From assembly GCA_964625255.1 (NCBI GenBank), contig CAZVBD010000003.1, positions 1-41,552 on the forward strand: a stretch of DNA of 41,552 bases, read 5' to 3'. A model generated the notes under the pieces. The model saw only the letters and a program-made list of their open reading frames with translations, ran no database searches and was not told the origin of the DNA. A program made the translations under genes and the position numbers. This document shows, in pieces, positions 16,156 to 28,716 of the stretch; the stretch's first letter is position 1, and each line of letters starts with the position of its first letter. This DNA is from an uncultured Thiohalobacter sp. (GTDB taxonomy: Bacteria > Pseudomonadota > Gammaproteobacteria > DSM-19610).

Positions 16156-17172
16156 ATGGCCAGCCTGACATTGTCATTCAAGGGCCAGAAACTGAAGATT
16201 TTTGCACTGGAGTCGACTGACACAGTCATTGGCCGTGATGACAGTTGTGCAATCTTTATCGACAGTCTTGCCATTGAACCGCAACATGCCATCATCAGGC
16301 AGCATGGAGACATCTGCACCGTTGAGCCTGTCGACCAGGAAAGTCATGTCCTCGTCAACGCTGTACGGGTTGAAAAGGCACATAAACTCTCGGATAGAGA
16401 CAACATACAAATCGGGAAACACACCCTGACGTATTCCATAGAGCAGAAATTCCCTGCACAGGAAGCACCACAGCCCCTGCAAACCCGCACATATTACGAT
16501 GCACACCACTGGCTACAAATTCAGAGCGGTTCACACCTTGGTCGAACCATCCGCCTCGACAAGGCCTTCACGCGCATCGGAAGTACAGACAGTAACCTTG
16601 CCATTATCGCCCGCCGCTATAATGGTTACTATCTTTCCCACCTGGATGGCGAACAGCACCCGGTGGTCAATGACCGAACAATCGGCGATACGGCACATAG
16701 ACTCTGCCACGGCGATAACATCAGTGTTGGTGAGCTGCAAGTACAGTTTTTCTCAGGCATGACACAGGCACCACAGGAGAATACCGATATGAGCAAATCC
16801 GATGAGCATACCGAACAACGCAAGTTCAGGCGCATCCCCTTCGATGTTAGCGTCAGCCTGCATCTTGGTGACACACACTGGGAAAGCACTCTGGCGGATA
16901 TTTCCCTGCACGGTGCGTTGATTCATACACCGGAAGACTTTACATCAAATGCAGACGCACAGTATCGCCTCGACATTCATCTGGAAGGAGGGCCGGATAT
17001 CGCCATGGATGTCCATGTGGCGCATCAGGAGCCGGGAACGACAGGGCTGCGCTGCGACGATATTGATGTTGACAGCATTACCCACCTGCGACGGCTGGTA
17101 GAACTGAATCTGGGTGACCCGGAACTGCTGGAGCGTGAATTATCCGCACTGGCACCGATTGAACCGATTTGA
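16156..17172 (+). CDS. tandem FHA domain + PilZ (MapZ/PA4608-like) protein
   Basis: FHA-like VIGRD..C.I.ID...H and second FHA (RIG...PVVND..L..GD.I.VG). PilZ RKFRR and DISLHG motifs, ending in the MapZ-like SITHLRRLVELNLGDPELLEREL. Confidence 0.85.
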   Translation: MASLTLSFKGQKLKIFALESTDTVIGRDDSCAIFIDSLAIEPQHAIIRQHGDICTVEPVDQESHVLVNAVRVEKAHKLSDRDNIQIGKHTLTYSIEQKFPAQEAPQPLQTRTYYDAHHWLQIQSGSHLGRTIRLDKAFTRIGSTDSNLAIIARRYNGYYLSHLDGEQHPVVNDRTIGDTAHRLCHGDNISVGELQVQFFSGMTQAPQENTDMSKSDEHTEQRKFRRIPFDVSVSLHLGDTHWESTLADISLHGALIHTPEDFTSNADAQYRLDIHLEGGPDIAMDVHVAHQEPGTTGLRCDDIDVDSITHLRRLVELNLGDPELLERELSALAPIEPI

Positions 17173-17175
17173 GCA

Positions 17176-18549
17176 TCACTGCCCGGAGAACCAGTCCATT
17201 ACTTCCGAATAGCGTGATACTGCACAGATATCCAGGCCCTTGATGGCTGACTTCGGCGCATTGGCCGCTGGTACAAGTGCTCGCCGGAAACCCAGCTTGG
17301 CCGCTTCATGCAGGCGCTGCTGACCGTTCGGTACCGGCCGAATCTCACCCGCCAGCCCCACCTCGCCAAAAACAACAAGATCATTCGGCAAGGTACGATC
17401 CCGGAAGCTCGACAACACCGCCAGCAACACGGACAAATCAGCCGCTGTTTCCGTCACGCGCACTCCACCCACCACGTTGACATAAACATCCTGATCCCCC
17501 ATCACTACACCACCGTGGCGGTGCTGGACAGCCAGCAACATAGCCAGCCGGTTCTGTTCCAGGCCGAGCGTCACACGCCTTGGGTTGGATAGCAGGCTGT
17601 CATCCACCAGAGCCTGCACCTCAACCAGCATCGGCCGTGTCCCTTCCATGGTGACCAGAATGACACTGCCCGCCACCGGTTGGTCATGTCGTGATAAAAA
17701 AATGGATGATGGATTGCGGACCTCTTTGAGACCCTTGTCGGTCATGACGAAAACACCCAGCTCGTTGACAGCACCGAAACGGTTTTTGACAGCACGGATG
17801 ACACGGTAGCGGCCACCGGAGTCACCTTCGAAATACAACACCGTATCGACCATGTGTTCCAGTACGCGTGGACCGGCCAGCGTACCTTCCTTGGTTACAT
17901 GCCCGACCAGAAATAATGCCGTGCCGGTCTGCTTGGCAAAACGCACCAGTTGTGCAGCGCTTTCGCGCACCTGCCCGACTGATCCTGGTGCTGATTGCAA
18001 CGCCTCGGTATACAGCGTCTGGATCGAATCGATCACCATAACCTTCGGTATCTCAATGCGTGCGTGCTCAATGATCCGTTCGACAGAGGTTTCCGCTAGC
18101 AAGCGCATGTTGTCCGCGCTCGCCTCCAGGCGACGTGCCCGCAGGGATACCTGCTCGGGCGATTCCTCACCCGTCACGTAGAGCGCTTTCAGGTTGCCGG
18201 GAAATGACGCAAGTGCCTGCAACAACAAGGTGGATTTTCCAATACCTGGATCACCACCAATCAGCACAACCGAGCCGGCGACCAGGCCACCACCCAGAAC
18301 GCGATCCAGCTCCTGTACACCAACGGAAACCCGCACCTCCTGTCCCGGCTGAACTGCACCAAGATCCTGGATTTGTGCACCAGCCTGCCCGGTATAGCTG
18401 CTGAACCGAGACTTGCCTGCATCACTGGACACACTGGCAAGCGCCTCGCTCATGCTGTTCCAGGCACCACAATCTGCACACTGACCAGCCCATTTAGGCG
18501 CCAGTGCGCCGCAGTCGCTGCACTGATATTGGAGTTTTGATTTTGCCAT
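17176..18549 (-). CDS. radA: DNA repair protein RadA/Sms
   Basis: C4 zinc finger, GDPGIGKST, KNRFG, Lon-like C-terminus GEVGLAGEIR. Confidence 0.99.
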   Translation of the reverse strand: MAKSKLQYQCSDCGALAPKWAGQCADCGAWNSMSEALASVSSDAGKSRFSSYTGQAGAQIQDLGAVQPGQEVRVSVGVQELDRVLGGGLVAGSVVLIGGDPGIGKSTLLLQALASFPGNLKALYVTGEESPEQVSLRARRLEASADNMRLLAETSVERIIEHARIEIPKVMVIDSIQTLYTEALQSAPGSVGQVRESAAQLVRFAKQTGTALFLVGHVTKEGTLAGPRVLEHMVDTVLYFEGDSGGRYRVIRAVKNRFGAVNELGVFVMTDKGLKEVRNPSSIFLSRHDQPVAGSVILVTMEGTRPMLVEVQALVDDSLLSNPRRVTLGLEQNRLAMLLAVQHRHGGVVMGDQDVYVNVVGGVRVTETAADLSVLLAVLSSFRDRTLPNDLVVFGEVGLAGEIRPVPNGQQRLHEAAKLGFRRALVPAANAPKSAIKGLDICAVSRYSEVMDWFSGQ

Positions 18550-18701
18550 GGCACGTCTCGAACAGTCGGGAAGGATCGGAGTGTACCCTTGAGCACCGCT
18601 GGATGACTACTGTCGGCAATCTGTATGCCATCAATGAATTAGCATTGTACAACTCCTGGAATTTCTGGCACGCTTGTCCACTAGGGTAATACGCGTTCTG
18701 A

Positions 18702-19640
18702 ATGCGGAAGCACAGGGGAGAAAACAGTAGCGTGAAACACACTGACGACGACATTCTTCAGCGCAGGCTGCGACATCTCAAAGTAACCAATGATCCGGCA
18801 CGCAATGCTGTCTGGATAGAGTTTAAATTCAGCGGCCGGCCATGCTTCACAACCGGGTTGCTTGATGACCTTATGATTGCGCAGCACTCTATCCGGAAAA
18901 CTGCACAACAACAGCATAGGCTTGGGAACAACGACCGACTTCAGTTCCAGGTACTCGCTTCGTCGGACACCCGCGCATTCAACCTGGGTGGTGATCTGAC
19001 TCACTTCATCAAACTCATCGAAACACGCGACCGGGATGCTCTACTGGACTATGCAAAAACCTGTATCGACATCCAGTTCGCCTCCGTAACCCATTACGAC
19101 ATTCCCTTTACCACCATTGCACTGGTTCAGGGCGAAGCATTGGGAGGCGGATTTGAAGCCGCACTGTCAAACAACGTTATCATTGCGGAAGAATCAGCCC
19201 GCTTCGGGTTTCCCGAACTGAGCTTTGGGATGTTCCCCGGGATGGGAGCCATTTCATTACTGACACGAAAAATCACCCCCGCCATGGCACGACGACTCAT
19301 CATGGACCGTCGTGTACACACGGCTGAAGAGCTTTATGATATGGGTGTTATCGATGTATTGGCAGCAGAAGGCGAGGGCCGTGAGGCTGTTGCCAACTAC
19401 ATGCAGCGACATAGTGACATCGCACCTGGATTGCACGGATTTCAGGCCGCCATCGATCGGGCCATGCCTGTCAGTTACGATGAATTGTACGATATTGTGG
19501 AACACTGGGTAGACACGGCACTTCAACTCAGCGAGAAAAACCGCAGGTTAATGGCCTACTTTGCCCGCGCACAAAGCCGACAGCAGCGCTCACAGCATCC
19601 GCCCCTGGTTATCGACCGCAGACAAACGTCACCGACTTGA
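18702..19640 (+). CDS. rpfF: DSF synthase RpfF (crotonase family)
   Basis: GRPCF, VLAS...FNLGGDL..F...I...DR..LL.YA..C, catalytic GGGFE and GFPE, FPGMGA. Convergent with an RpfC-like kinase. Real start may be GTG 18732. Confidence 0.9.
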   Translation: MRKHRGENSSVKHTDDDILQRRLRHLKVTNDPARNAVWIEFKFSGRPCFTTGLLDDLMIAQHSIRKTAQQQHRLGNNDRLQFQVLASSDTRAFNLGGDLTHFIKLIETRDRDALLDYAKTCIDIQFASVTHYDIPFTTIALVQGEALGGGFEAALSNNVIIAEESARFGFPELSFGMFPGMGAISLLTRKITPAMARRLIMDRRVHTAEELYDMGVIDVLAAEGEGREAVANYMQRHSDIAPGLHGFQAAIDRAMPVSYDELYDIVEHWVDTALQLSEKNRRLMAYFARAQSRQQRSQHPPLVIDRRQTSPT

Positions 19641-19644
19641 AACT

Positions 19645-22227
19645 TCAGCCTGTTTTGCGTGGACTGTTCACCCGTTCGCGGAGCGTTTCCAGCGCCGCAT
19701 CTGTTGCCTGATGCAAGGCCTTGAGCTGATCGACACCATCGCTCAGGAAGTCCTGCTCAGGCATATTCTGCATCTGTGTGCTCAATGCCGCCAGCTGTTG
19801 TAGACCGAGGTACATAGCAGCGCCCTTCAATGCATGCGCACTGTCACGGAATACTATCCAGTCATGATCAGCCACGGCAGATTCAAGCGCTCGCAAATCA
19901 CGATTGGCATCACCTTCAAAGTTGGTGATGATATCGCGCATAAACTGGTCATCACCGTCACCAAGTAATTCCAGTTTTTCGAATTCCTCGGTATCAATAA
20001 CCGGTAATTTTTCAATGGCGGAAACACTTGTATCCGTGGTCATAGTATTTACTACACTTCCCTGATGCTCGTCTCGCAGGGTATCAGTCAATACCTCCTG
20101 CAAACGTGACAGGGATACCGGTTTGGTCAGAAAATGTCGGATGCCCGCCAAAGCGCAGGCATCTCGCGATTCCTGCGTAGCATCGGCCGTAAGAATAACA
20201 AATGAAAGATTCGACGACAGGCCATGCGCCATGGAAAATGCCGAATAAACTTCAAGACCACCCATGTCAGGCATATTTTTGTCGACAATGGCGACATCGT
20301 AGTCCGACTCCTCCAGCGAAAGTAATACAGCCTCACCACCATCTACAGCCACGCACTGATGTCCAAGCTGTTCAAGCATACGCTGCAAAACAATGCGGTT
20401 TGTCGCATTGTCATCCCCGATAAGCACCTTGAATTGACGCCCCATATCCTTACTCACACGTTGTCGCGAGGCGATATGAATCACATCATCTTCCGTACTG
20501 TGACGCGAATAGCAGGCGTGCAGCACGTTGAAAAGTACCCGTCTGTCCAGTGGCTGGCTCAAAACAAAGAAATGATCGCGCGTACACCCCACAATCTCCG
20601 GTGGATAGTGCTCTCCCCCCAGCAGGGCAACAGGCAGTGCCTCAGATGCTGCATCGCCCGCATACTCTGTCAGCAACGCATCAAGCTCCGGACCATAAGG
20701 GACTCCATCAATCAGCAGTGCATCAACAGCCTGCCCTGCTGCCCGCATCTCGCTAACCCGCTGCCGGCATACCTCGATACTGCTAACGACACTAAATGGC
20801 ATCTCCCAACCACTCAGGTTCTCCAGCAGCTCACCACCACTGGCATCGTCATGCCGCAGGCAGATAACCCTGCAGTTGCGAGTCCAGGCACTAATCTCAT
20901 CCTTCTCTGACAGGTCAACAACTCTGAAGGGAAGATCAAACCAGAAGGTTGTCCCAACTCCCGGCGTGCTCTGCACGCCGATTTCGCCACCCATCAGGCT
21001 AACCAGATGTTTACAAATCGTTGTGCCCAGACCCGTACCACCGTGCCGACGGGCTATCGTGCTATCGGCCTGGGCAAAAGGCTCAAAAATCTGATCCAGA
21101 CGATTTTCTGCGATACCCGTACCCGTATCGGCGACTTCGAAGCGCAAAACCACATCCCCACCCTGCTCTTCCCGGGGATGAACCCGCAGAGAGACAAAAC
21201 CCTTGTCGGTAAATTTCAATGCATTACCGACAAGATTGATAATGACTTGTCGAAGCTTGTGAGGATCACCAAATAGCAGGAAAGGGGTACTGGGATTAAT
21301 GGTTTCCTGCAAAGCGATATGTTTCTCGACGGCTTGGGCTTCAAATATACGCAAAGTCGTATTGATCAGCGCGAACAGGTCAAACTCGACTCCCTCCAGA
21401 TCAAGCTGGCCTGACTCGATTTTGGACAGATCAAGTATGTCATCGATCTGATGGGCAAGTGTCTTGCCGGACGCATAGATAGTCTCGACATACTCGCAAT
21501 CAACAGGATCCAGTGGTCGGCTTCGCAACAGCTCTGTCATGCCGAGAATACCATTGAGTGGCGTACGTATTTCATGCGACATGCGGGAAAGAAAATCACT
21601 TTTGGCGCGACTGGCCTGATCAGCCTGTTGTTTCGCCTCGTTAAGACGGCGAATAAGAACCGAGGAATAAGCGGGTATAACAAGCAACGTCAAAGCAAGA
21701 CCAATGGCCAGCTCTCTGTGGCTAATCCAGTATTCGGTCGTAAATGAGACCGTCACAAACCCCACCAGTGATGCGGCGCCTGAAACATAAAGATATTTTT
21801 CGCTGTATCTGAATCCGTTACCGAGCGTGACCCACAAATACACACCATACCAGGGCGCACCCGCTGGCCCCGTCAGATAGAGTCCATAGCTCAGTGCAAA
21901 AATATCTGCCAGTATGCTTGCCACACGTCGGGATGCCGATGGTGCTGGCCAAACCAGTGTCGAAATGAAGAATAGTGTGGAGAAAACCAGGAAACAGGAG
22001 ATAAACACCACACCGGTATGCCACAAGGCTTGCCCCGCCTCTGTGCCCGGCCAATCGAACAGCAAATAACACAAAAAGGTGAGCGGAATAATAATACGCA
22101 GTAATCCCTGCTCCTGGTCAGGCGTACCTTTCCAGCCTATCGCGGACAACCAGGGAGGAATTCCGGTGTCAGGTACTTCGCGACCCTTGTTTAATTCGCC
22201 GCCGGCTAACACGTGTACCTGCTCCAT
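19645..22227 (-). CDS. rpfC: DSF sensor hybrid histidine kinase RpfC (5TM-HisKA-HATPase-pseudoREC-REC-HPt)
   Basis: RpfC-like sensor (EQGLLRIII, YLWVTLGNGFRY), SHEIRTPLNG, NALKFT, GGTGLG, REC DDNATNR...DKNMP...TKP, HPt AHALKG. Confidence 0.88.
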   Translation of the reverse strand: MEQVHVLAGGELNKGREVPDTGIPPWLSAIGWKGTPDQEQGLLRIIIPLTFLCYLLFDWPGTEAGQALWHTGVVFISCFLVFSTLFFISTLVWPAPSASRRVASILADIFALSYGLYLTGPAGAPWYGVYLWVTLGNGFRYSEKYLYVSGAASLVGFVTVSFTTEYWISHRELAIGLALTLLVIPAYSSVLIRRLNEAKQQADQASRAKSDFLSRMSHEIRTPLNGILGMTELLRSRPLDPVDCEYVETIYASGKTLAHQIDDILDLSKIESGQLDLEGVEFDLFALINTTLRIFEAQAVEKHIALQETINPSTPFLLFGDPHKLRQVIINLVGNALKFTDKGFVSLRVHPREEQGGDVVLRFEVADTGTGIAENRLDQIFEPFAQADSTIARRHGGTGLGTTICKHLVSLMGGEIGVQSTPGVGTTFWFDLPFRVVDLSEKDEISAWTRNCRVICLRHDDASGGELLENLSGWEMPFSVVSSIEVCRQRVSEMRAAGQAVDALLIDGVPYGPELDALLTEYAGDAASEALPVALLGGEHYPPEIVGCTRDHFFVLSQPLDRRVLFNVLHACYSRHSTEDDVIHIASRQRVSKDMGRQFKVLIGDDNATNRIVLQRMLEQLGHQCVAVDGGEAVLLSLEESDYDVAIVDKNMPDMGGLEVYSAFSMAHGLSSNLSFVILTADATQESRDACALAGIRHFLTKPVSLSRLQEVLTDTLRDEHQGSVVNTMTTDTSVSAIEKLPVIDTEEFEKLELLGDGDDQFMRDIITNFEGDANRDLRALESAVADHDWIVFRDSAHALKGAAMYLGLQQLAALSTQMQNMPEQDFLSDGVDQLKALHQATDAALETLRERVNSPRKTG

Positions 22228-22298
22228 CGAGAAAAGAGATTACTGTGCTGGGCTGTAGCGGCCGCATGACAAAAATGCTTTAATTAGACGAAGCTATA

Positions 22299-22559
22299 AT
22301 GGGGAAGTGGATAGTGAAAGTTGAAAATGCATTAGTAGAGATAATAACCCGGGAACGAAAATGCTCCCCTGAAGATGTGTTGGTGGAAACACAATTAAGT
22401 GAGCTGGGTATAGATTCCCTGCAAGCCATTACCATTCTTTATGAACTTGAAGAACGTTTTGAAATAGAAATTCCCAATGAACTGATGGAAAACCTTGAAA
22501 CAGTAGGAGATATTGTTTCGGCCATCAACCAGATCAGGCAGGAAGGCGCAAAAAACTAG
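22299..22559 (+). CDS. acyl carrier protein (NodF-like)
   Basis: Phosphopantetheine site LGIDSL, LEERFEIEIP...TVGDIV. 2 nt upstream of the ketosynthase. Confidence 0.9.
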   Translation: MGKWIVKVENALVEIITRERKCSPEDVLVETQLSELGIDSLQAITILYELEERFEIEIPNELMENLETVGDIVSAINQIRQEGAKN

Positions 22560-22561
22560 AC

Positions 22562-23776
22562 ATGCAGGAACGCGTTGTCATTACCGGCCTCGGCGCCATA
22601 TGTGGACCGGGGCACACGGCAAAACAATTCTGGGAGACGTTGCTCAACGGCACCTCGGCCATTGCTCCGCTGGGTACACAGTGGGAAGGGTCGAAAATCC
22701 GCATCGGAGCACTTGTCAGGGACTACGACCCTGCAGCCCATTTCGCACCGGACAAACTTCCTCTTCTTGATCGTTTCTCACAGTTTGCCGTCATCGCCGC
22801 CACCGAAGCGCTGATGGACGCCGGACTGAAGTCACACAGTAGTGCAACGCAACGCGCAGCTGCCATCATAGGCACCGGGTGTGGAGGGAAGCAGACCGAC
22901 GAGGAAACCTATCTCCACTTGTACAAAAATGGACGACCCCGCGCTCACCCGCTGACCATTCCAAAAGGCATGCCCAGTGCAGCCGCCTGCCAGGTCAGCC
23001 TGAACCTCGGGATTGGAGGTCCTGTTTTCTCAGTCGCCAGTGCCTGTGCCTCGGGCGCACATGCCATCATACAGGCTTCCCTGATGATCCAGTCCGGACT
23101 GGTGGATGTCGCGCTCGCCGGAGGGTCAGACACGCCGTTCACTTATGGTCTTCTGAAATCTTGGGAGGCATTAAGGGTTGTTTCAAATGATACCTGCAGA
23201 CCTTTCTCCGCTAATCGCTCCGGTATGGTGCTGGGCGAAGGTGCCGGTATGCTGGTGCTTGAGTCGGAAAGTCATGCACTCAAACGGGGGGCTCGTATCT
23301 ATGCCGAACTGGCCGGGTTTGGCATGTCATCCGACTCAGCACATATAACCCGACCTGACGTAAATGGCATCATATCAGCTATGCAACAGGCCCTGCAGCG
23401 CGCAGATATTTCCGCTGAATCAGTCTCCTACGTCAACGCCCACGGCACTGGTACTGCGGCCAACGATAAAACCGAAACCGAGGCTTTGCATAAAACGTTC
23501 GGCCAGCATGCTCGCTCACTCGCCATCTCATCAACCAAATCAATGCATGGCCACGCGCTGGGCGCATCCAGCGCCCTGGAACTGATTGCGACTACACTCG
23601 CCATCCATCACCAGATCGCCCCACCGACGGCCAACTTCACGGGAGCCGATGAAGACTGTGACCTGGACTATATCCCGAACAAGGCACGCCCCCTGCCAAT
23701 CAATGTGGCAATATCGAATGCATTCGCATTCGGGGGACTCAACGCGGTCACGGTATTAAAAAAACCGAATCTTTGA
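22562..23776 (+). CDS. beta-ketoacyl-ACP synthase II family, NodE-like
   Basis: Cys-His-His triad (SACASG, NAHGTGT, KSMHGH). NodE-like segments PKGMPSAAA and LKSWEALRV..DTCRPFSA.R.G.VLGEGAGM. Confidence 0.9.
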   Translation: MQERVVITGLGAICGPGHTAKQFWETLLNGTSAIAPLGTQWEGSKIRIGALVRDYDPAAHFAPDKLPLLDRFSQFAVIAATEALMDAGLKSHSSATQRAAAIIGTGCGGKQTDEETYLHLYKNGRPRAHPLTIPKGMPSAAACQVSLNLGIGGPVFSVASACASGAHAIIQASLMIQSGLVDVALAGGSDTPFTYGLLKSWEALRVVSNDTCRPFSANRSGMVLGEGAGMLVLESESHALKRGARIYAELAGFGMSSDSAHITRPDVNGIISAMQQALQRADISAESVSYVNAHGTGTAANDKTETEALHKTFGQHARSLAISSTKSMHGHALGASSALELIATTLAIHHQIAPPTANFTGADEDCDLDYIPNKARPLPINVAISNAFAFGGLNAVTVLKKPNL

Positions 23777-23778
23777 AC

Positions 23779-24849
23779 TCAGCCTTTCAATTTGAACAAA
23801 TAGTGGCTATTCCCGTAGAAATGTCCATCCATAGGGGCAAACATAGCCTTGCACAGTGAAAAATAATTATTCCAGTGTGCTATCTGTTCATGATCGAACG
23901 TCGTCTGATACAGCGCTGGTAAACTGTGCCAATAGCGACGATGCCACTCATCCAGCGTCCGCCAGTAATTCAACCCGTTCACAAACCAGGTTTCGCACGT
24001 ATCAAAGTGATCTGTGTACCCGGCAAATTCCGCGTGAGGCCAGACGCGCCCCCCCGGGAAATAGAGTCCTATGCGTGTCTTGTCAGGGTTCAGAAACTGG
24101 GGAATTGCAGCCTGTGACGTTATAAAATGGTGGAACGTTCTGCCGCCCGGCAACAACAGCGAAGCAATCTTTTCCAGCACTGCCCGCATATTGATAACCT
24201 GTTCAAATACGGCCACGGAAATCACCAGATTGTACTGACGCCCTCCCAGGGCATTGACATCAAGCTGGTCGAAAGCACCTTCTATCAGGGTCAGCCGGTC
24301 AGAACAAAGGGGGTCGGAAGGGTCCTGCATGCGCCCCCTGATATGCGCAAGTTGAACCTTGCTCGGGGTGATGCTGACGATTTCCAGCTCTGGATACTGT
24401 TTCAGCAAATAGGTTTCCAACGACCCAAAGCCACAACCAATATTGAACACCTTCTCATCACCACGGATTCCTGCACGTTCCGCAATCAGAGCAAATTTGG
24501 CTTCTTGCGCCTGTTCGAGGGTCGCTGTAGAGTTTCTGACATCTTCGGGTGACTCACCATAATAAGCCATGGAGTAGGCTCGATATTGTGTATCGAGGAA
24601 CCCTGAGAAAAAATCCTGCTGCTCATCATAGTGCTGTTCCATTAGCGCTTCAGTCTCTTCCATCACGGGACCCTCATCGGTCGCAACACCATAATCCCGG
24701 GGAACAGACGTGGAATCCTCGTAGCGGGCATATTCCCGCTCAAAGAAACGTGTCAACCTGCGCTCGTAAAGCCGCATTTCACTGGTTTCAGGCCCAAATA
24801 TGCCTTCTTGATGAAGACGCGCCACAATATCTGTTTCCACTCCGATCAT
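23779..24849 (-). CDS. class I SAM-dependent methyltransferase, cyclopropane-fatty-acid synthase (CMAS)/CNMT-like family
   Basis: HYD...FLD...YSMAYY, TLEQAQEAK, NIGCGFGS, ISVAVFEQV, YFPGG, W.VNG.NY.RTLDEW. Start set at ATG 24849 after GGAGG. Confidence 0.8.
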   Translation of the reverse strand: MIGVETDIVARLHQEGIFGPETSEMRLYERRLTRFFEREYARYEDSTSVPRDYGVATDEGPVMEETEALMEQHYDEQQDFFSGFLDTQYRAYSMAYYGESPEDVRNSTATLEQAQEAKFALIAERAGIRGDEKVFNIGCGFGSLETYLLKQYPELEIVSITPSKVQLAHIRGRMQDPSDPLCSDRLTLIEGAFDQLDVNALGGRQYNLVISVAVFEQVINMRAVLEKIASLLLPGGRTFHHFITSQAAIPQFLNPDKTRIGLYFPGGRVWPHAEFAGYTDHFDTCETWFVNGLNYWRTLDEWHRRYWHSLPALYQTTFDHEQIAHWNNYFSLCKAMFAPMDGHFYGNSHYLFKLKG

Positions 24850-25104
24850 CACCCCTCCAGAAAATGTTAAACTGCCAGTAACTGCTCGCAAAGCGATGAT
24901 AACACCATCAAAAAGCAACTTAACCCATGGACGGGTCAAGACAGGATAGATTTTGTCGTAAATCCCGGCTTATATCCGACACAGAGACCGAAATAAGCCC
25001 GGTTGCAACTATATCTCAATCATGGAAGCCTGATGCCGATAGACTCACCGCAACAAGACGTCTATCAATAAACAGGCACTGTCGAAGAGCAACCACAACG
25101 CACT

Positions 25105-26169
25105 ATGGCCACTGTACTCGTCATCGATGATCAGGCAACAAGCCGTCAGATCCTTACCCAGATCGTCAGGTCAATTGACGGACTGCTGGAAGTCAAATCT
25201 TTTGACAGCGCCCAACCGGCTCTGAACTGGCTGCGTGACAGACCTGCCGACCTGATTCTCACTGACTACAAGATGCCCGGCATGAACGGCATCGAATTTC
25301 TCGAACAGGCACGCGCTATCCCGCAGATCCGTAGCGTCCCCGTCGTGATGATTACCTCGCATGAACAAACAGAGATCCGCTACCGCGCACTGGAACTGGG
25401 CGCGACGGATTTCATCAATAAACCGATCGACCACGCCGAGTGCCGCGCCCGCTTCCGTAACCTGCTGCAGCTTCAGCGTCAAAGGTTGATCATCGAGGAT
25501 CGCGCCAACTGGCTGGAAGAACAGGTACGGGCTGCCACCCACGCCATCCGCGTACGCGAACATGAAACTCTGCTTCGCCTCGCCAAGGCCGGCGAATACC
25601 GTGATGAAGAAACCGGTAACCACGTTATTCGCATGGCACGTTTCGCCCGTGTTATTGCGGAAACCCTGGGGGTTGATGAAACCGAATGTGAAAGCATCGA
25701 ACTCTCTGCACCAATGCACGATATCGGTAAAATCGGCATCCCTGACCAGATCCTGCTCAAGCCCGGCAAACTCACCACCGAGGAGTTCGAGGTCATCAAG
25801 CAACACACGGTGATCGGATACGAGATACTCAGGGACAGCCCTTCAAAGTACCTGAGAATGGGCGCGGAGATCGCTCTGGGGCATCACGAAAAATTTGATG
25901 GCAAGGGCTATCCCCAGGGACTCATAGGCGAAGCTATTCCCCTGCCCGCCCGTATTGTCGCTGTAGCCGATGTATTCGATGCCCTGACATCACGTCGCTG
26001 CTACAAACCGGCATGGCGTGAACAGGATGTACTGAGTCTGATGGTTAGTGAAAGCGGCAAACATTTTGACCCGCAATGTATCGATGCTTTTCTCAGTCAG
26101 CTCAATCGTATAAAAAGGATACGCGCCTCGTTATCTGACGATGACAACAGGAAGCAGGAAGCCACATAA
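25105..26169 (+). CDS. rpfG: REC + HD-GYP c-di-GMP phosphodiesterase RpfG
   Basis: VIDDQ...DYKMPGMNG.EF...KPI...RAR.RNLLQL (RpfG-like), MHDIGKIGIPD, HHEKFDGKGYP, VADVFDAL. Confidence 0.88.
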   Translation: MATVLVIDDQATSRQILTQIVRSIDGLLEVKSFDSAQPALNWLRDRPADLILTDYKMPGMNGIEFLEQARAIPQIRSVPVVMITSHEQTEIRYRALELGATDFINKPIDHAECRARFRNLLQLQRQRLIIEDRANWLEEQVRAATHAIRVREHETLLRLAKAGEYRDEETGNHVIRMARFARVIAETLGVDETECESIELSAPMHDIGKIGIPDQILLKPGKLTTEEFEVIKQHTVIGYEILRDSPSKYLRMGAEIALGHHEKFDGKGYPQGLIGEAIPLPARIVAVADVFDALTSRRCYKPAWREQDVLSLMVSESGKHFDPQCIDAFLSQLNRIKRIRASLSDDDNRKQEAT

Positions 26170-26197
26170 CACCTGCGAGAAACACCCGAACCCGGAC

Positions 26198-27316
26198 TCA
26201 ACACCCCCCAGTCGACTCACTGAACCGTGGCACCCGTGATGTCACTCCGCACAGCAGCGCATAGCTGATTGTTCCAGCGGCTTCGGCCACCACATCCACC
26301 GGGAGTCCCTGCCCCCACAGCTCGACAACATCACCCACGCCAGCTTGCGGCTGCTGGCGCAGATCGACACAAAGCATGTCCATGGACACACGTCCGATGA
26401 GGGATACTGGTTCATTATTGACCAACAAGGGGGTACCGGATGGTGCATGACGTGGGTAACCATCACCGTATCCGGCTGCCACTACCCCAATCGGCATATC
26501 TTCCGGACAGATCCAGGTCTGCCCGTAGCCGACCGCATCACCCTGGCGGCAATGATGGACGGCGATCAGTTCGGAGGTCAGTGTCATCACCGGGCGCAAT
26601 TCAACCGGCACGGCCTGCCCGGCTGCCATCGGTGATGCGCCGTACAGCATGATACCGGGACGCACCCAGTCCAGGTGACTGGACGGCCGACTGAGGAGTG
26701 CTGCGGAATTTGCCAGTGAACAGGGTGCCTCACGCTGCGCACTCAGCTCACGGAAAACAGCCTCCTGATCTGCATTTGCGACATGTTGAGGCTCATCAGC
26801 ACAGGCAAAGTGCGACATCCAGCGTTGCGCTGTTACCTGTGGCATGGCTGCCAGACGATCCCAGGCGGCAAGAGCCTCACCCGGGGCGAACCCCAGACGG
26901 TTCATACCGGTGTTGACCTTGAGCCAGACCGTCAGGCCTGCTGCGTTATGCCCCGGAGCGCCTGTGCCTGGTACCTTGTCCAGTGCTTGCAGCCAGTCCA
27001 GTTGTGCCGCCTGATGCACGACCAGTTCAAAGTGGTGATCTACGACAGCTGCCAGCTCATCACTGGAGAACACACCCTCCAGCAACACAATCGGCTTTTC
27101 GACACCGGCTTCGCGTAATAACACCCCTTCTTCCAGACTGGCGACGGCAAAGCTATCCGCAGCCTCCAGCGCACCCGCCACAGCCAGCATGCCGTGGCCA
27201 TAACCATCCGCCTTGATCACAGCCATAACACGACTGTCCGGCGCCGCGCGGCATGCCTGGGAAAGATTGAACGTCAGGGCGGAAAGATCGATATGCGCCC
27301 GGACGGGACGCGTCAT
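26198..27316 (-). CDS. alr: alanine racemase
   Basis: AVIKADGYGHG (PLP Lys), TGMNRLG, GYGDGYPR, GRVSMDM. Confidence 0.97.
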   Translation of the reverse strand: MTRPVRAHIDLSALTFNLSQACRAAPDSRVMAVIKADGYGHGMLAVAGALEAADSFAVASLEEGVLLREAGVEKPIVLLEGVFSSDELAAVVDHHFELVVHQAAQLDWLQALDKVPGTGAPGHNAAGLTVWLKVNTGMNRLGFAPGEALAAWDRLAAMPQVTAQRWMSHFACADEPQHVANADQEAVFRELSAQREAPCSLANSAALLSRPSSHLDWVRPGIMLYGASPMAAGQAVPVELRPVMTLTSELIAVHHCRQGDAVGYGQTWICPEDMPIGVVAAGYGDGYPRHAPSGTPLLVNNEPVSLIGRVSMDMLCVDLRQQPQAGVGDVVELWGQGLPVDVVAEAAGTISYALLCGVTSRVPRFSESTGGC

Positions 27317-28716
27317 CCGCTGTAATCCTCGTTGGAATAGGACTGGATGGCGGTGAAGTTTTCAAAGCGTGTGTGCTGGCCGAGGAAGGTCAGACGACGC
27401 ATACCAATGGGACCATTACGCTGCTTGCTGATAATGATCTCCGCCGTACCCTTGTCGGGGCTGTCCTCGTCGTAGACCTCATCACGGTAGATAAACATGA
27501 TCACGTCGGCATCCTGCTCGATTGCGCCCGATTCGCGTAAATCCGACATCACTGGCCGCTTGTTGGGACGCTGTTCGAGACTGCGGTTGAGCTGTGACAG
27601 GGCAATCACCGGCACTTCCAGTTCTTTCGCCAGTGCTTTCAGTGAGCGGGATATTTCCGAGATTTCCCCGGTCCGGTTTTCATTGCTGCCGGGCACCTGC
27701 ATCAACTGGAGGTAATCGATAACAATCAACCCAAGATTGTGCTCGCGTTTCAGCCGTCGCGCCCGCGCACGTAACTCGGTGGGCGACAAGGCTGGCGTGT
27801 CATCGATAAACAACGGCGCTTTGGAAAGAATACTGACCGCCGAGGTCAGTCGTGGCCAGTCGTCATCATCGAGCTTGCCGGTACGCACCCTGGTCTGGTC
27901 GATACGACCGAGCGAAGACATCAGGCGCATGGCCAGTTGTTCGCCAGGCATTTCCATACTGAATACCGCAACGGGCACGTTATCTTTTATTGCAGCATGT
28001 TCGGCGATATTCATGGCAAACGATGTTTTACCCATGGAAGGTCGGCCGGCTACGATCACAAGGTCTGAAGCCTGCAGACCGGCGGTCATCTCATCGACAT
28101 CGGTAAACCCGGTCGATACACCGGTAAGTGGATTATCCTGATGAAACAGGGTATCAATACGGTCAACCGCACGTGCCAGCAGGTCCTTGATATCGTGAAA
28201 TCCTGAACCACGGGTAACGCCCTGGTCCGTTATACGAAATACCAGCTTCTCGGCATTGTCCAGCAACGAGGGCGTATCGCGCCCTTCCGTGTAGTAGGCG
28301 CTGTTGGCGATCTCGGTACCCACATCGGCCAACTGGCGCAGCACCGAGTTGTCGCGCACGATATTGGCGTAGGCTCGAATATTCGCCGCGCTCGGGGTAT
28401 CTTTCGCCAGCGTGCCCAGGTAGGCCAGCCCACCCACATCATCGAGCTGATCGTTGGACTCCAGCCATTCAGACAAGGTGATCACATCACAGGGGTCGCC
28501 GCGCTCGATCAGCGCATCGATGGCCGAAAACACAAGCCGGTGTTCACGACGGTAGAAATCAGGGCCGCTCAGAATATCCGCAATCTGGTCCCAGGCGCGG
28601 TTATCCAGTAGCAGACCGCCCAGCAGCGACTGCTCGGCCTGCACAGAATGCGGGGGGACCTTCTGACGATCAGCGTTAAACTCGACCGTGGCTGCGGATG
28701 AAACCGGTTCCGGCAT
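27313..28716 (-). CDS. dnaB: replicative DNA helicase
   Basis: PPHSVQAEQSLLGGL, GRPSMGKT, IDYLQL, SDLRESGAIEQDAD, KQRNGP. ATG 28716 with GGAGG. No intein. Confidence 0.98.
   Translation of the reverse strand: MPEPVSSAATVEFNADRQKVPPHSVQAEQSLLGGLLLDNRAWDQIADILSGPDFYRREHRLVFSAIDALIERGDPCDVITLSEWLESNDQLDDVGGLAYLGTLAKDTPSAANIRAYANIVRDNSVLRQLADVGTEIANSAYYTEGRDTPSLLDNAEKLVFRITDQGVTRGSGFHDIKDLLARAVDRIDTLFHQDNPLTGVSTGFTDVDEMTAGLQASDLVIVAGRPSMGKTSFAMNIAEHAAIKDNVPVAVFSMEMPGEQLAMRLMSSLGRIDQTRVRTGKLDDDDWPRLTSAVSILSKAPLFIDDTPALSPTELRARARRLKREHNLGLIVIDYLQLMQVPGSNENRTGEISEISRSLKALAKELEVPVIALSQLNRSLEQRPNKRPVMSDLRESGAIEQDADVIMFIYRDEVYDEDSPDKGTAEIIISKQRNGPIGMRRLTFLGQHTRFENFTAIQSYSNEDYSG

Follow-up and report, generated by a model that had tools for sequence, protein, structure and literature searches.

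A diffusible signal factor locus in Thiohalobacter with a dedicated NodFE-like carrier protein–ketosynthase pair and a methyltransferase, likely to make a modified signal

Why does a bacterial locus for diffusible signal factor (DSF) carry its own acyl carrier protein (ACP), ketosynthase (KS) and methyltransferase (MT) next to the rpf signalling genes? The locus lies at positions 18702-26169 of a 41,552-nt stretch of DNA (the window), which is contig CAZVBD010000003.1 of assembly GCA_964625255.1 from an uncultured Thiohalobacter sp. In Xanthomonas, the synthase RpfF dehydrates 3-hydroxyacyl-ACP and frees the acid, is blocked by the receiver (REC) domain of the sensor kinase RpfC, and takes its substrate from housekeeping type II fatty acid synthesis (FAS II) (PMC13660987). 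The gene content of the window points to another source of substrate, and the locus likely makes a chemically modified, undescribed DSF-type signal. On balance we lean towards a private line resembling rhizobial NodF and NodE that, together with MT, would supply RpfF with a tailored chain, the product of which would be read by RpfC and RpfG via cyclic di-GMP (c-di-GMP).

All six open reading frames (ORFs; rpfF, rpfC, ACP, KS, MT and rpfG) are intact, and their domains agree in Pfam and NCBIfam. Re-examination of the ORFs bears out the genes, the orientations and the gaps of 4, 71, 2 and 2 nt at the first four junctions that a first-pass annotation of the stretch had given. A single 7,781-nt contig from run X2, a separate study, spans 17923-25703 with 10 differences and bridges rpfF to mid-rpfG, and two contigs of run X7 span 18581-22008 and 22064-25386; an assembly artefact is thus excluded. 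The block is flanked by radA and alr.

The linkage of the cassette (ACP, KS and MT) to rpf genes across relatives is real. An MT alignment used to scan metagenome contigs gave 96 confirmed loci, 80 of which were taken and joined with 10 genome loci into 70 clusters at 90% identity. According to the first-pass annotation, a cassette unlinked to rpf genes in relatives would count against its reading; linkage is what was found, since KS, ACP, rpfF and rpfC are present in each of the 14 MT clusters that have long flanks. With short contigs included, 54 of the 70 clusters show KS, 48 ACP, 47 rpfF and 56 any rpf gene, and only three, on contigs of 1.3, 1.8 and 4.5 kb, show none of KS, ACP and rpf. 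The gene order varies in at least five arrangements, among them an ACP-MT-KS tandem divergent from rpfF (L059, L093), MT in tandem directly upstream of rpfF (L096, L100, L101), MT between rpfC and rpfF (L086, L110) and the entire cassette upstream of rpfF. The linkage is found at several chromosomal sites and across 40-100% identity. Of the 34 genomes in the genus, rpfF is found in 13, KS in 11 and MT in 7; all seven with MT also have KS and rpfF, and all 11 KS genes adjoin an RpfC-type kinase. Given these counts, the arrangement is not due to chance. That common descent alone keeps the genes together, as an island passed on in one piece whose members have no functional tie, is in our judgement extremely improbable. 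Every pairwise distance correlation is positive and a single origin of the cassette-linked RpfFs is not rejected, as such inheritance would predict, yet intact clusters survive rearrangement into many orders, at several sites and over the whole range of identity, which largely refutes it.

Outside the genus the arrangement is rare. At least 66 of 400 genomes of the class have rpfF, a lower bound like the other counts from these searches, which scored 4-5 candidates per genome. At the 60 class rpfF loci inspected, over up to ~6 kb per side and with several cut by contig ends, the cassette was seen at three, two of them from the genus, which leaves 1/57 outside it. Other inspected loci have an unrelated KS in two cases (FabB-like in G031; KS with ACP and a radical S-adenosylmethionine (SAM) protein in G149), ACP alone in one and an ordinary cyclopropane fatty acid (CFA) synthase gene in one. 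In the RpfF tree the cassette-linked sequences fall into three groups. We considered whether several RpfF lineages acquired the cassette independently and make no such claim, because a single clade is not rejected (approximately unbiased (AU) test, p 0.129; 39/113 rows). A divergent MT subtype occurs at loci whose RpfF is near that of the window (74-78% identity for RpfF, 45-47% for MT), so MT was either kept or replaced in place.

The signalling core has the features of a DSF system. The rpfF gene (18702-19640, forward strand; start probably GTG 18732, where relatives start) encodes an RpfF-type crotonase, the DSF synthase with 3-hydroxyacyl-ACP dehydratase and thioesterase functions. Its best PDB matches are RpfF/DSF synthases (7zq7, 3m6m, 6dgn and 5fus, E 1e-54 to 1e-42), and the next crotonase follows at 6e-17. 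Residues E152 and E172 align with both catalytic glutamates of the enzyme from Xanthomonas campestris pv. campestris (Xcc), which we take to be numbered E141 and E161 there, and are kept in 53/53 cassette-linked RpfFs. The protein scores 318 against NCBIfam PRK08788 (cut-off 177) and 220 bits against the strict RpfF equivalog NF053515, below its cut-off of 550. The adjoining rpfC (19645-22227, reverse strand) encodes, according to Pfam, an 860-aa RpfC-type hybrid sensor kinase with a transmembrane sensor, HisKA, HATPase, REC and HPt domains, and such a kinase beside rpfF is a hallmark of DSF systems. The motifs of H219, D649 and H798 are present, and the REC domain finds Xcc RpfC REC (3m6m_D) as best PDB match with E 3e-24, the next being 5e-13. 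RpfG (25105-26169, forward strand; Pfam Response_reg and HD_5) has the REC-HD-GYP architecture of a c-di-GMP phosphodiesterase, with D54 and the HD and GYP motifs present.

Both synthase and sensor depart from their plain counterparts. In Xcc RpfC, R15, D17, S18, E19 and Q22 are required for DSF binding (PMC5391125). The window RpfC has the sensor motif KGTPDQEQ in place of RPDSEHEQ, with K, T, P, D and Q at these five positions (aligned to the consensus, not to the Xcc sequence), so the binding set is incomplete and two needed residues are lost. D17 is absent from 29/46 cassette RpfC rows versus 9/46 plain rows. In the cassette RpfFs of the main clade, position 176 is Gly in 42/42, versus Asn in 52/55 plain RpfFs; position 168 is Phe in 42/42, versus Met in 35/55; and position 184 is mostly Ile, Leu or Phe, versus Tyr in 48/55. 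These three positions lie near the second catalytic Glu, and 11 other cassette RpfFs resemble plain ones. Altered in both synthase and sensor, the pair shows what may be signs of a changed ligand. As a separate observation, the cassette loci L085, L086, L111, L199 and L200 each encode a further RpfC-like kinase, along with a small REC protein (with a weak ANTAR match in L111), and this second kinase has a canonical RPD(S/T)EH sensor motif where it could be read (L086, L111, L199, L200); possibly one sensor serves the private signal and the other canonical DSF.

Where would the acyl chain come from? The ACP (22299-22559, forward strand, PF00550) has its attachment site at Ser40, which is invariant in 30/30 aligned cluster ACPs, and scores below every AcpP cut-off of NCBIfam, consistent with a dedicated, NodF-like role. 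A second ACP adjoins the housekeeping fabF on contig C2. The KS (22562-23776, forward strand), an elongating enzyme with Cys163, His294 and His329 catalytic motifs, is NodE-like by identity, neighbours and tree. Its top 50 plasmid matches are all rhizobial at 51-52% identity; the rhizobial KS genes beside nodF among the top matches reach 48.7-52%, and FabF-type ones in a spread plasmid sample at most 42%. The annotated rhizobial matches adjoin nodF, nodA or nodD, and many close homologues are named 'nodulation protein E' by JGI. In a quick tree of 60 rows, with SH-aLRT support only, a clade of 45 rpf-linked KSs (95) has five NodEs as its sister group (83), and FabF and FabB lie outside the NodE-like group (99) that holds both. 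A KS of this group beside a private ACP is the arrangement of NodF and NodE. The rpf-linked KSs agree with NodE and not with FabF at 19 positions, and depart from NodE in a consistent way at 22. The latter include C107, K110 and D113, where E. coli FabF has I108, L111 and I114, and which we take to line the acyl pocket; the length and unsaturation of the product may therefore differ from those made by NodE. The proposal that the chain is built on a private ACP and KS is supported in this way and can be sharpened, the pair being NodF/NodE-like rather than AcpP/FabF-like. NodEF is needed for the alpha,beta-unsaturated chains of Nod factors, which are special acyl chains of a signal (PMC9048898, PMC4618531). 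A search for nod genes that covered the locus and no other part of the genome found none, the genes there being those of the rpf system with radA and alr. The genome also has FabF, FabB, FabA, the ACP beside fabF and three further CFA-type genes, and with these separate genes in place the cassette is not housekeeping. A phosphopantetheinyl transferase was not found in the 87.6%-complete genome. To be noted, in L190, from a Sphingobium plasmid, a NodE-like KS and an ACP are operonic with a type III polyketide synthase (PKS) and a methyltransferase.

The MT (23779-24849, reverse strand) is a SAM methyltransferase of the CMAS/CFA family (PF02353). Its start is most likely ATG 24849, not TTG 24939, because the resulting 356 aa is the usual length in the family. 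With the members from other loci it belongs to a clade of its own: 79 MTs group together (99), apart from the three CFA-type genes of the genome and from DUF1295-linked enzymes. Among 401 genomes of the phylum, only that of the window has it, and the best plasmid match is ~29%. The AlphaFold model (pLDDT 92.6) has the overall fold of coclaurine N-methyltransferase (CNMT). In the CFA synthase, bicarbonate is bound by C139, E239, H266, I268 and Y317 (PMC3132707). In MT, E216, H241, I243 and Y295 are the equivalents of E. coli E239, H266, I268 and Y317 and invariant in 79/79 members, so that four of the five residues are always kept. The Glu of the I-E-x-x-E-H motif of CNMT, which presumably has a role in amine binding, is replaced at position 213 by Gly or Ala in 79/79 members. 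MT scores 93.5 bits against the NCBIfam cfa equivalog (cut-off 400) and is at most a putative CFA synthase.

Cyclopropanation, a C-methyl branch and an O-methyl ester had all been proposed as the modification. The conserved bicarbonate residues favour C-methylation or cyclopropanation, which fit the active site, over the ester, which is less likely. Relatives form rings or methyl branches; the branch-forming methylases UfaM and FufM act on phospholipids (PMC7380195). Either product type may thus be expected of MT, with one-carbon addition at a double bond favoured. On chemical grounds a conjugated cis-2 bond would be a poor nucleophile, so MT more probably acts on a cis bond further along the chain. 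As for the form of the substrate, a predicted complex of MT with the ACP scores 0.53 versus 0.01 for the best control, with a partner pLDDT of 83 and runs that agree in at least 95% of contacts. This score range is reached by 18/157 solved complexes and 2/215 mismatches (both of those that passed), and predictions in it are mostly wrong unless the pair is likely beforehand; the model weakly supports an MT–ACP contact.

The ACP and KS could also feed RpfF while MT acts after release, either inactivating or converting the free signal (C-methyl turnover replacing RpfB) or forming a methyl ester like Ralstonia PhcB. We regard this as distinctly unlikely. It would suit the lack of rpfB at the locus, the optional and swappable nature of MT and its closest folds among small-molecule N-methyltransferases. 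However, MT retains the bicarbonate residues of the CFA synthases that modify alkenes, with Gly or Ala for the CNMT-like Glu, the predicted contact with the ACP speaks weakly for a carrier-bound substrate, and four AMP-binding ligases elsewhere in the genome are candidate RpfB equivalents by family.

In yet another version, the ACP and KS only set chain length or boost a known DSF-family acid (e.g. one that is 2,5-dienoic or of medium chain length), and MT rides along as an enzyme of membrane lipids. The action of UfaM and FufM on phospholipids would agree with such a lipid enzyme, and the FabB-like KS that replaces the pair at the G031 site suggests that precursor supply is a common need. Wherever the flank allowed a view, however, the MT clade is found only at rpf/KS loci; the protein is shorter than the CFA synthases compared (356 versus 371-528 aa), and the genome has three further CFA-type genes. 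We therefore think this version very unlikely. The G031 locus itself (L115) occupies the same radA-alr site, with an rpfG 83% identical to that of the window, unrelated rpfF and rpfC alleles (36% and 33%) and the FabB-like KS without an ACP. By sequence comparison, its synthase–sensor module has apparently been swapped in place.

From gene content, catalytic motifs and linkage, we infer the following chemistry for the preferred reading, a tailored chain made on the private ACP. KS would extend a FAS II-derived primer on this carrier, borrowing FabD and FabG, and FabA and FabB, the genes of which are present, would supply a cis double bond. While the chain is still on the ACP, MT would then transfer one SAM-derived carbon to an isolated double bond and yield a cyclopropane or a methyl branch. 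RpfF would dehydrate the 3-hydroxyacyl-ACP and hydrolyse the thioester, giving a tailored cis-2-enoic acid as signal. By analogy with Xanthomonas, RpfC would sense this product, restrain RpfF via its REC domain and signal to RpfG, which would degrade c-di-GMP. Loci that lack MT would yield the unmethylated version.

Several observations weigh against this reading. The strands alternate within the block (rpfF forward, rpfC reverse, ACP and KS forward, MT reverse, rpfG forward), which implies several transcription units rather than one operon, so that the cassette and the rpf genes of the window are not co-transcribed. NodE-like ACP–KS pairs also occur without rpf genes (L131 of G310; in Sphingobium with a type III PKS), and the likeness to NodFE supports a private chain and not a polyene in particular. 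The nearest folds of MT in Foldseek are plant alkaloid N-methyltransferases (TM score 0.66-0.79), with CFA synthases after them, and the C139 position is Met in 72/79 members. MT is dispensable, since ACP–KS pairs stand without it at L111, L114 and L199, and its distances correlate weakly with those of RpfF (rho 0.34, versus 0.83 for RpfF-RpfC and 0.53 for RpfF-KS; 28 loci). Repeated recruitment of the cassette, the AU test leaving one origin unrejected, is unsupported. The canonical sensor Asp is retained in 17/46 cassette RpfC rows, the altered sensors come mostly from one clade, and the changes in RpfF and RpfC follow clades and are therefore not independent events. Finally, a pair of MTs in L133 (G350:C535) lies on a 4.5-kb contig without any rpf gene. 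These two MTs are in tandem at a contig edge and belong to different subgroups of the rpf-linked clade; the rpfF of G350 is on another contig.

Alternatively, the cassette might lie on the output side of the system, RpfF making ordinary DSF from the housekeeping ACP while ACP, KS and MT make a separate rpf-controlled lipid or bioactive fatty acid. The divergent placement of ACP–KS from rpfC and of MT from rpfG would fit co-regulation, other pathways elsewhere use NodE-like pairs, and many cassette RpfCs keep the canonical sensor. Set against this are the position of MT, which immediately precedes rpfF in several lineages, the distinctive substitutions of main-clade RpfFs beside the catalytic Glu, and the finding that, in the loci with ORF lists (not all scanned for families), no acyltransferase or thioesterase besides RpfF was seen with the cassette. 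Overall we consider such an output unlikely.

How does the locus compare with known systems? By its apparent workings it belongs with DSF systems, as a new form of them, and not with Nod systems. With the rpfB-rpfF-rpfC-rpfG cluster of Xanthomonas campestris and X. oryzae (PDB 3M6M) it shares both RpfF glutamates, a convergent RpfC with the order TM-HisKA-HATPase-REC-HPt and a REC-HD-GYP RpfG. Unlike that cluster, the window has the dedicated ACP, KS and MT, no rpfB at the locus, an 860-aa RpfC with the altered sensor motif and an RpfF under the strict equivalog cut-off. As in rhizobial NodF/NodE, a private ACP and KS are adjacent (~52% KS identity) and would serve a signal molecule; here there is no nodABC at the locus, and RpfF would free the chain in place of a transfer by NodA. 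MT shares PF02353 and the conserved E/H/I/Y bicarbonate set with CFA synthase, the mycolic-acid CMAS enzymes and UfaM-FufM, whereas its identity to them is ~25% or less in structure alignment and its clade is separate. It further differs from this group in the Met at C139, in SAM motif I, where Asn is mostly found, in a fold nearer to CNMT and in a genomic link with a signal synthase instead of DUF1295/DUF1365 clusters. Photorhabdus PpyS/DarABC and Ralstonia PhcB also use dedicated enzymes to turn fatty-acyl precursors into quorum signals (PMC7154725), but with other synthases and receptors, and none of them uses RpfF, RpfC or RpfG.

We found no publication that describes the arrangement of rpf genes with ACP, KS and MT in a search that left supplements aside and mostly did not cover subscription journals. 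For vent and seep bacteria, the available parts of two papers, one of them on the Thiolapillus genome (PMC4136832), mention rpf genes and not the cassette (PMC4136832, PMC12781772). In the portion available of a 2026 review, DSF-family acids vary in length, branch and unsaturation and derive from general fatty-acid intermediates, with no cyclopropane ring listed (PMC13465397). If a dedicated, swappable cassette is indeed at work, DSF chemistry can be encoded, and vent and sediment sulfur bacteria would have private channels. The locus offers a short, directly testable four-gene pathway and a lead to the substrate of a methyltransferase clade not yet characterised, and the rpf-linked KS is a non-rhizobial relative in which NodE control of chain structure can be studied.

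A wider reading, possible and held only tentatively, is that marine sulfur-oxidising Gammaproteobacteria run a modular DSF line. A NodFE-type pair would make a polyunsaturated chain; an interchangeable tailoring enzyme, the CFA-like MT or a radical SAM protein in MT-less loci, would cyclopropanate or methylate it on the carrier; RpfF would free the private signal and a re-tuned RpfC would read it. If true, no earlier DSF signal would have a ring or branch put in with SAM, and rhizobial NodE would have its sister lineage in the rpf-linked ketosynthases. Two rpf loci with ACP and KS and no MT encode such radical SAM proteins (L114:11962-13470 in G006 and L146:9028-10623 in G149). These are 61% identical to each other, with weak similarity to PhpK/HpnJ, and the L146 copy is co-directional with ACP, KS and rpfF. 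Such a protein is a possible alternative tailoring enzyme; the gene occurs in 1/34 genus genomes, so its role as an MT substitute rests on two loci.

The named relatives are metagenome-assembled genomes of Thiohalobacter and Sedimenticola, and the labelled data sets with large shares of the window are hydrothermal vent metagenomes (studies P4, P5), next to study P1, from which the window itself may come. No RNA run carrying window sequence is among the runs listed. The GC content at third codon positions of the block genes (0.52-0.61; ACP 0.39) shows only a mild dip against the flanks (0.56-0.69) and is not decisive for a horizontal origin. A riboswitch or attenuator upstream of MT was considered and rejected: 17500-27500 has no Rfam match, and a hairpin at 24919-24940 is not kept in four relatives. 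A promoter scan gave 8 sites versus 6.5 expected and is uninformative. In the intergenic region between MT and rpfG (24850-25104), a short block, TATCGGCA ... TATAGT, is conserved in five close relatives and is probably a promoter element. Beside radA, 16156-17172 encodes an FHA-FHA-like protein with PilZ, a candidate c-di-GMP receptor, which is also found where the rpf alleles differ. In L130:13382-14960 (G247), a transposase-like ORF lies between KS and MT and seemingly clips the KS end. Sedimenticola-type clusters (L003:8329-9930, L066, L068, L070, L074-L080) have an extra REC protein like the C-terminal part of RpfC. In the ACP-MT-KS lineage, GGDEF-EAL proteins converge on the cassette (L092:2831-4933, L102:3327-5402) and could provide an alternative output.

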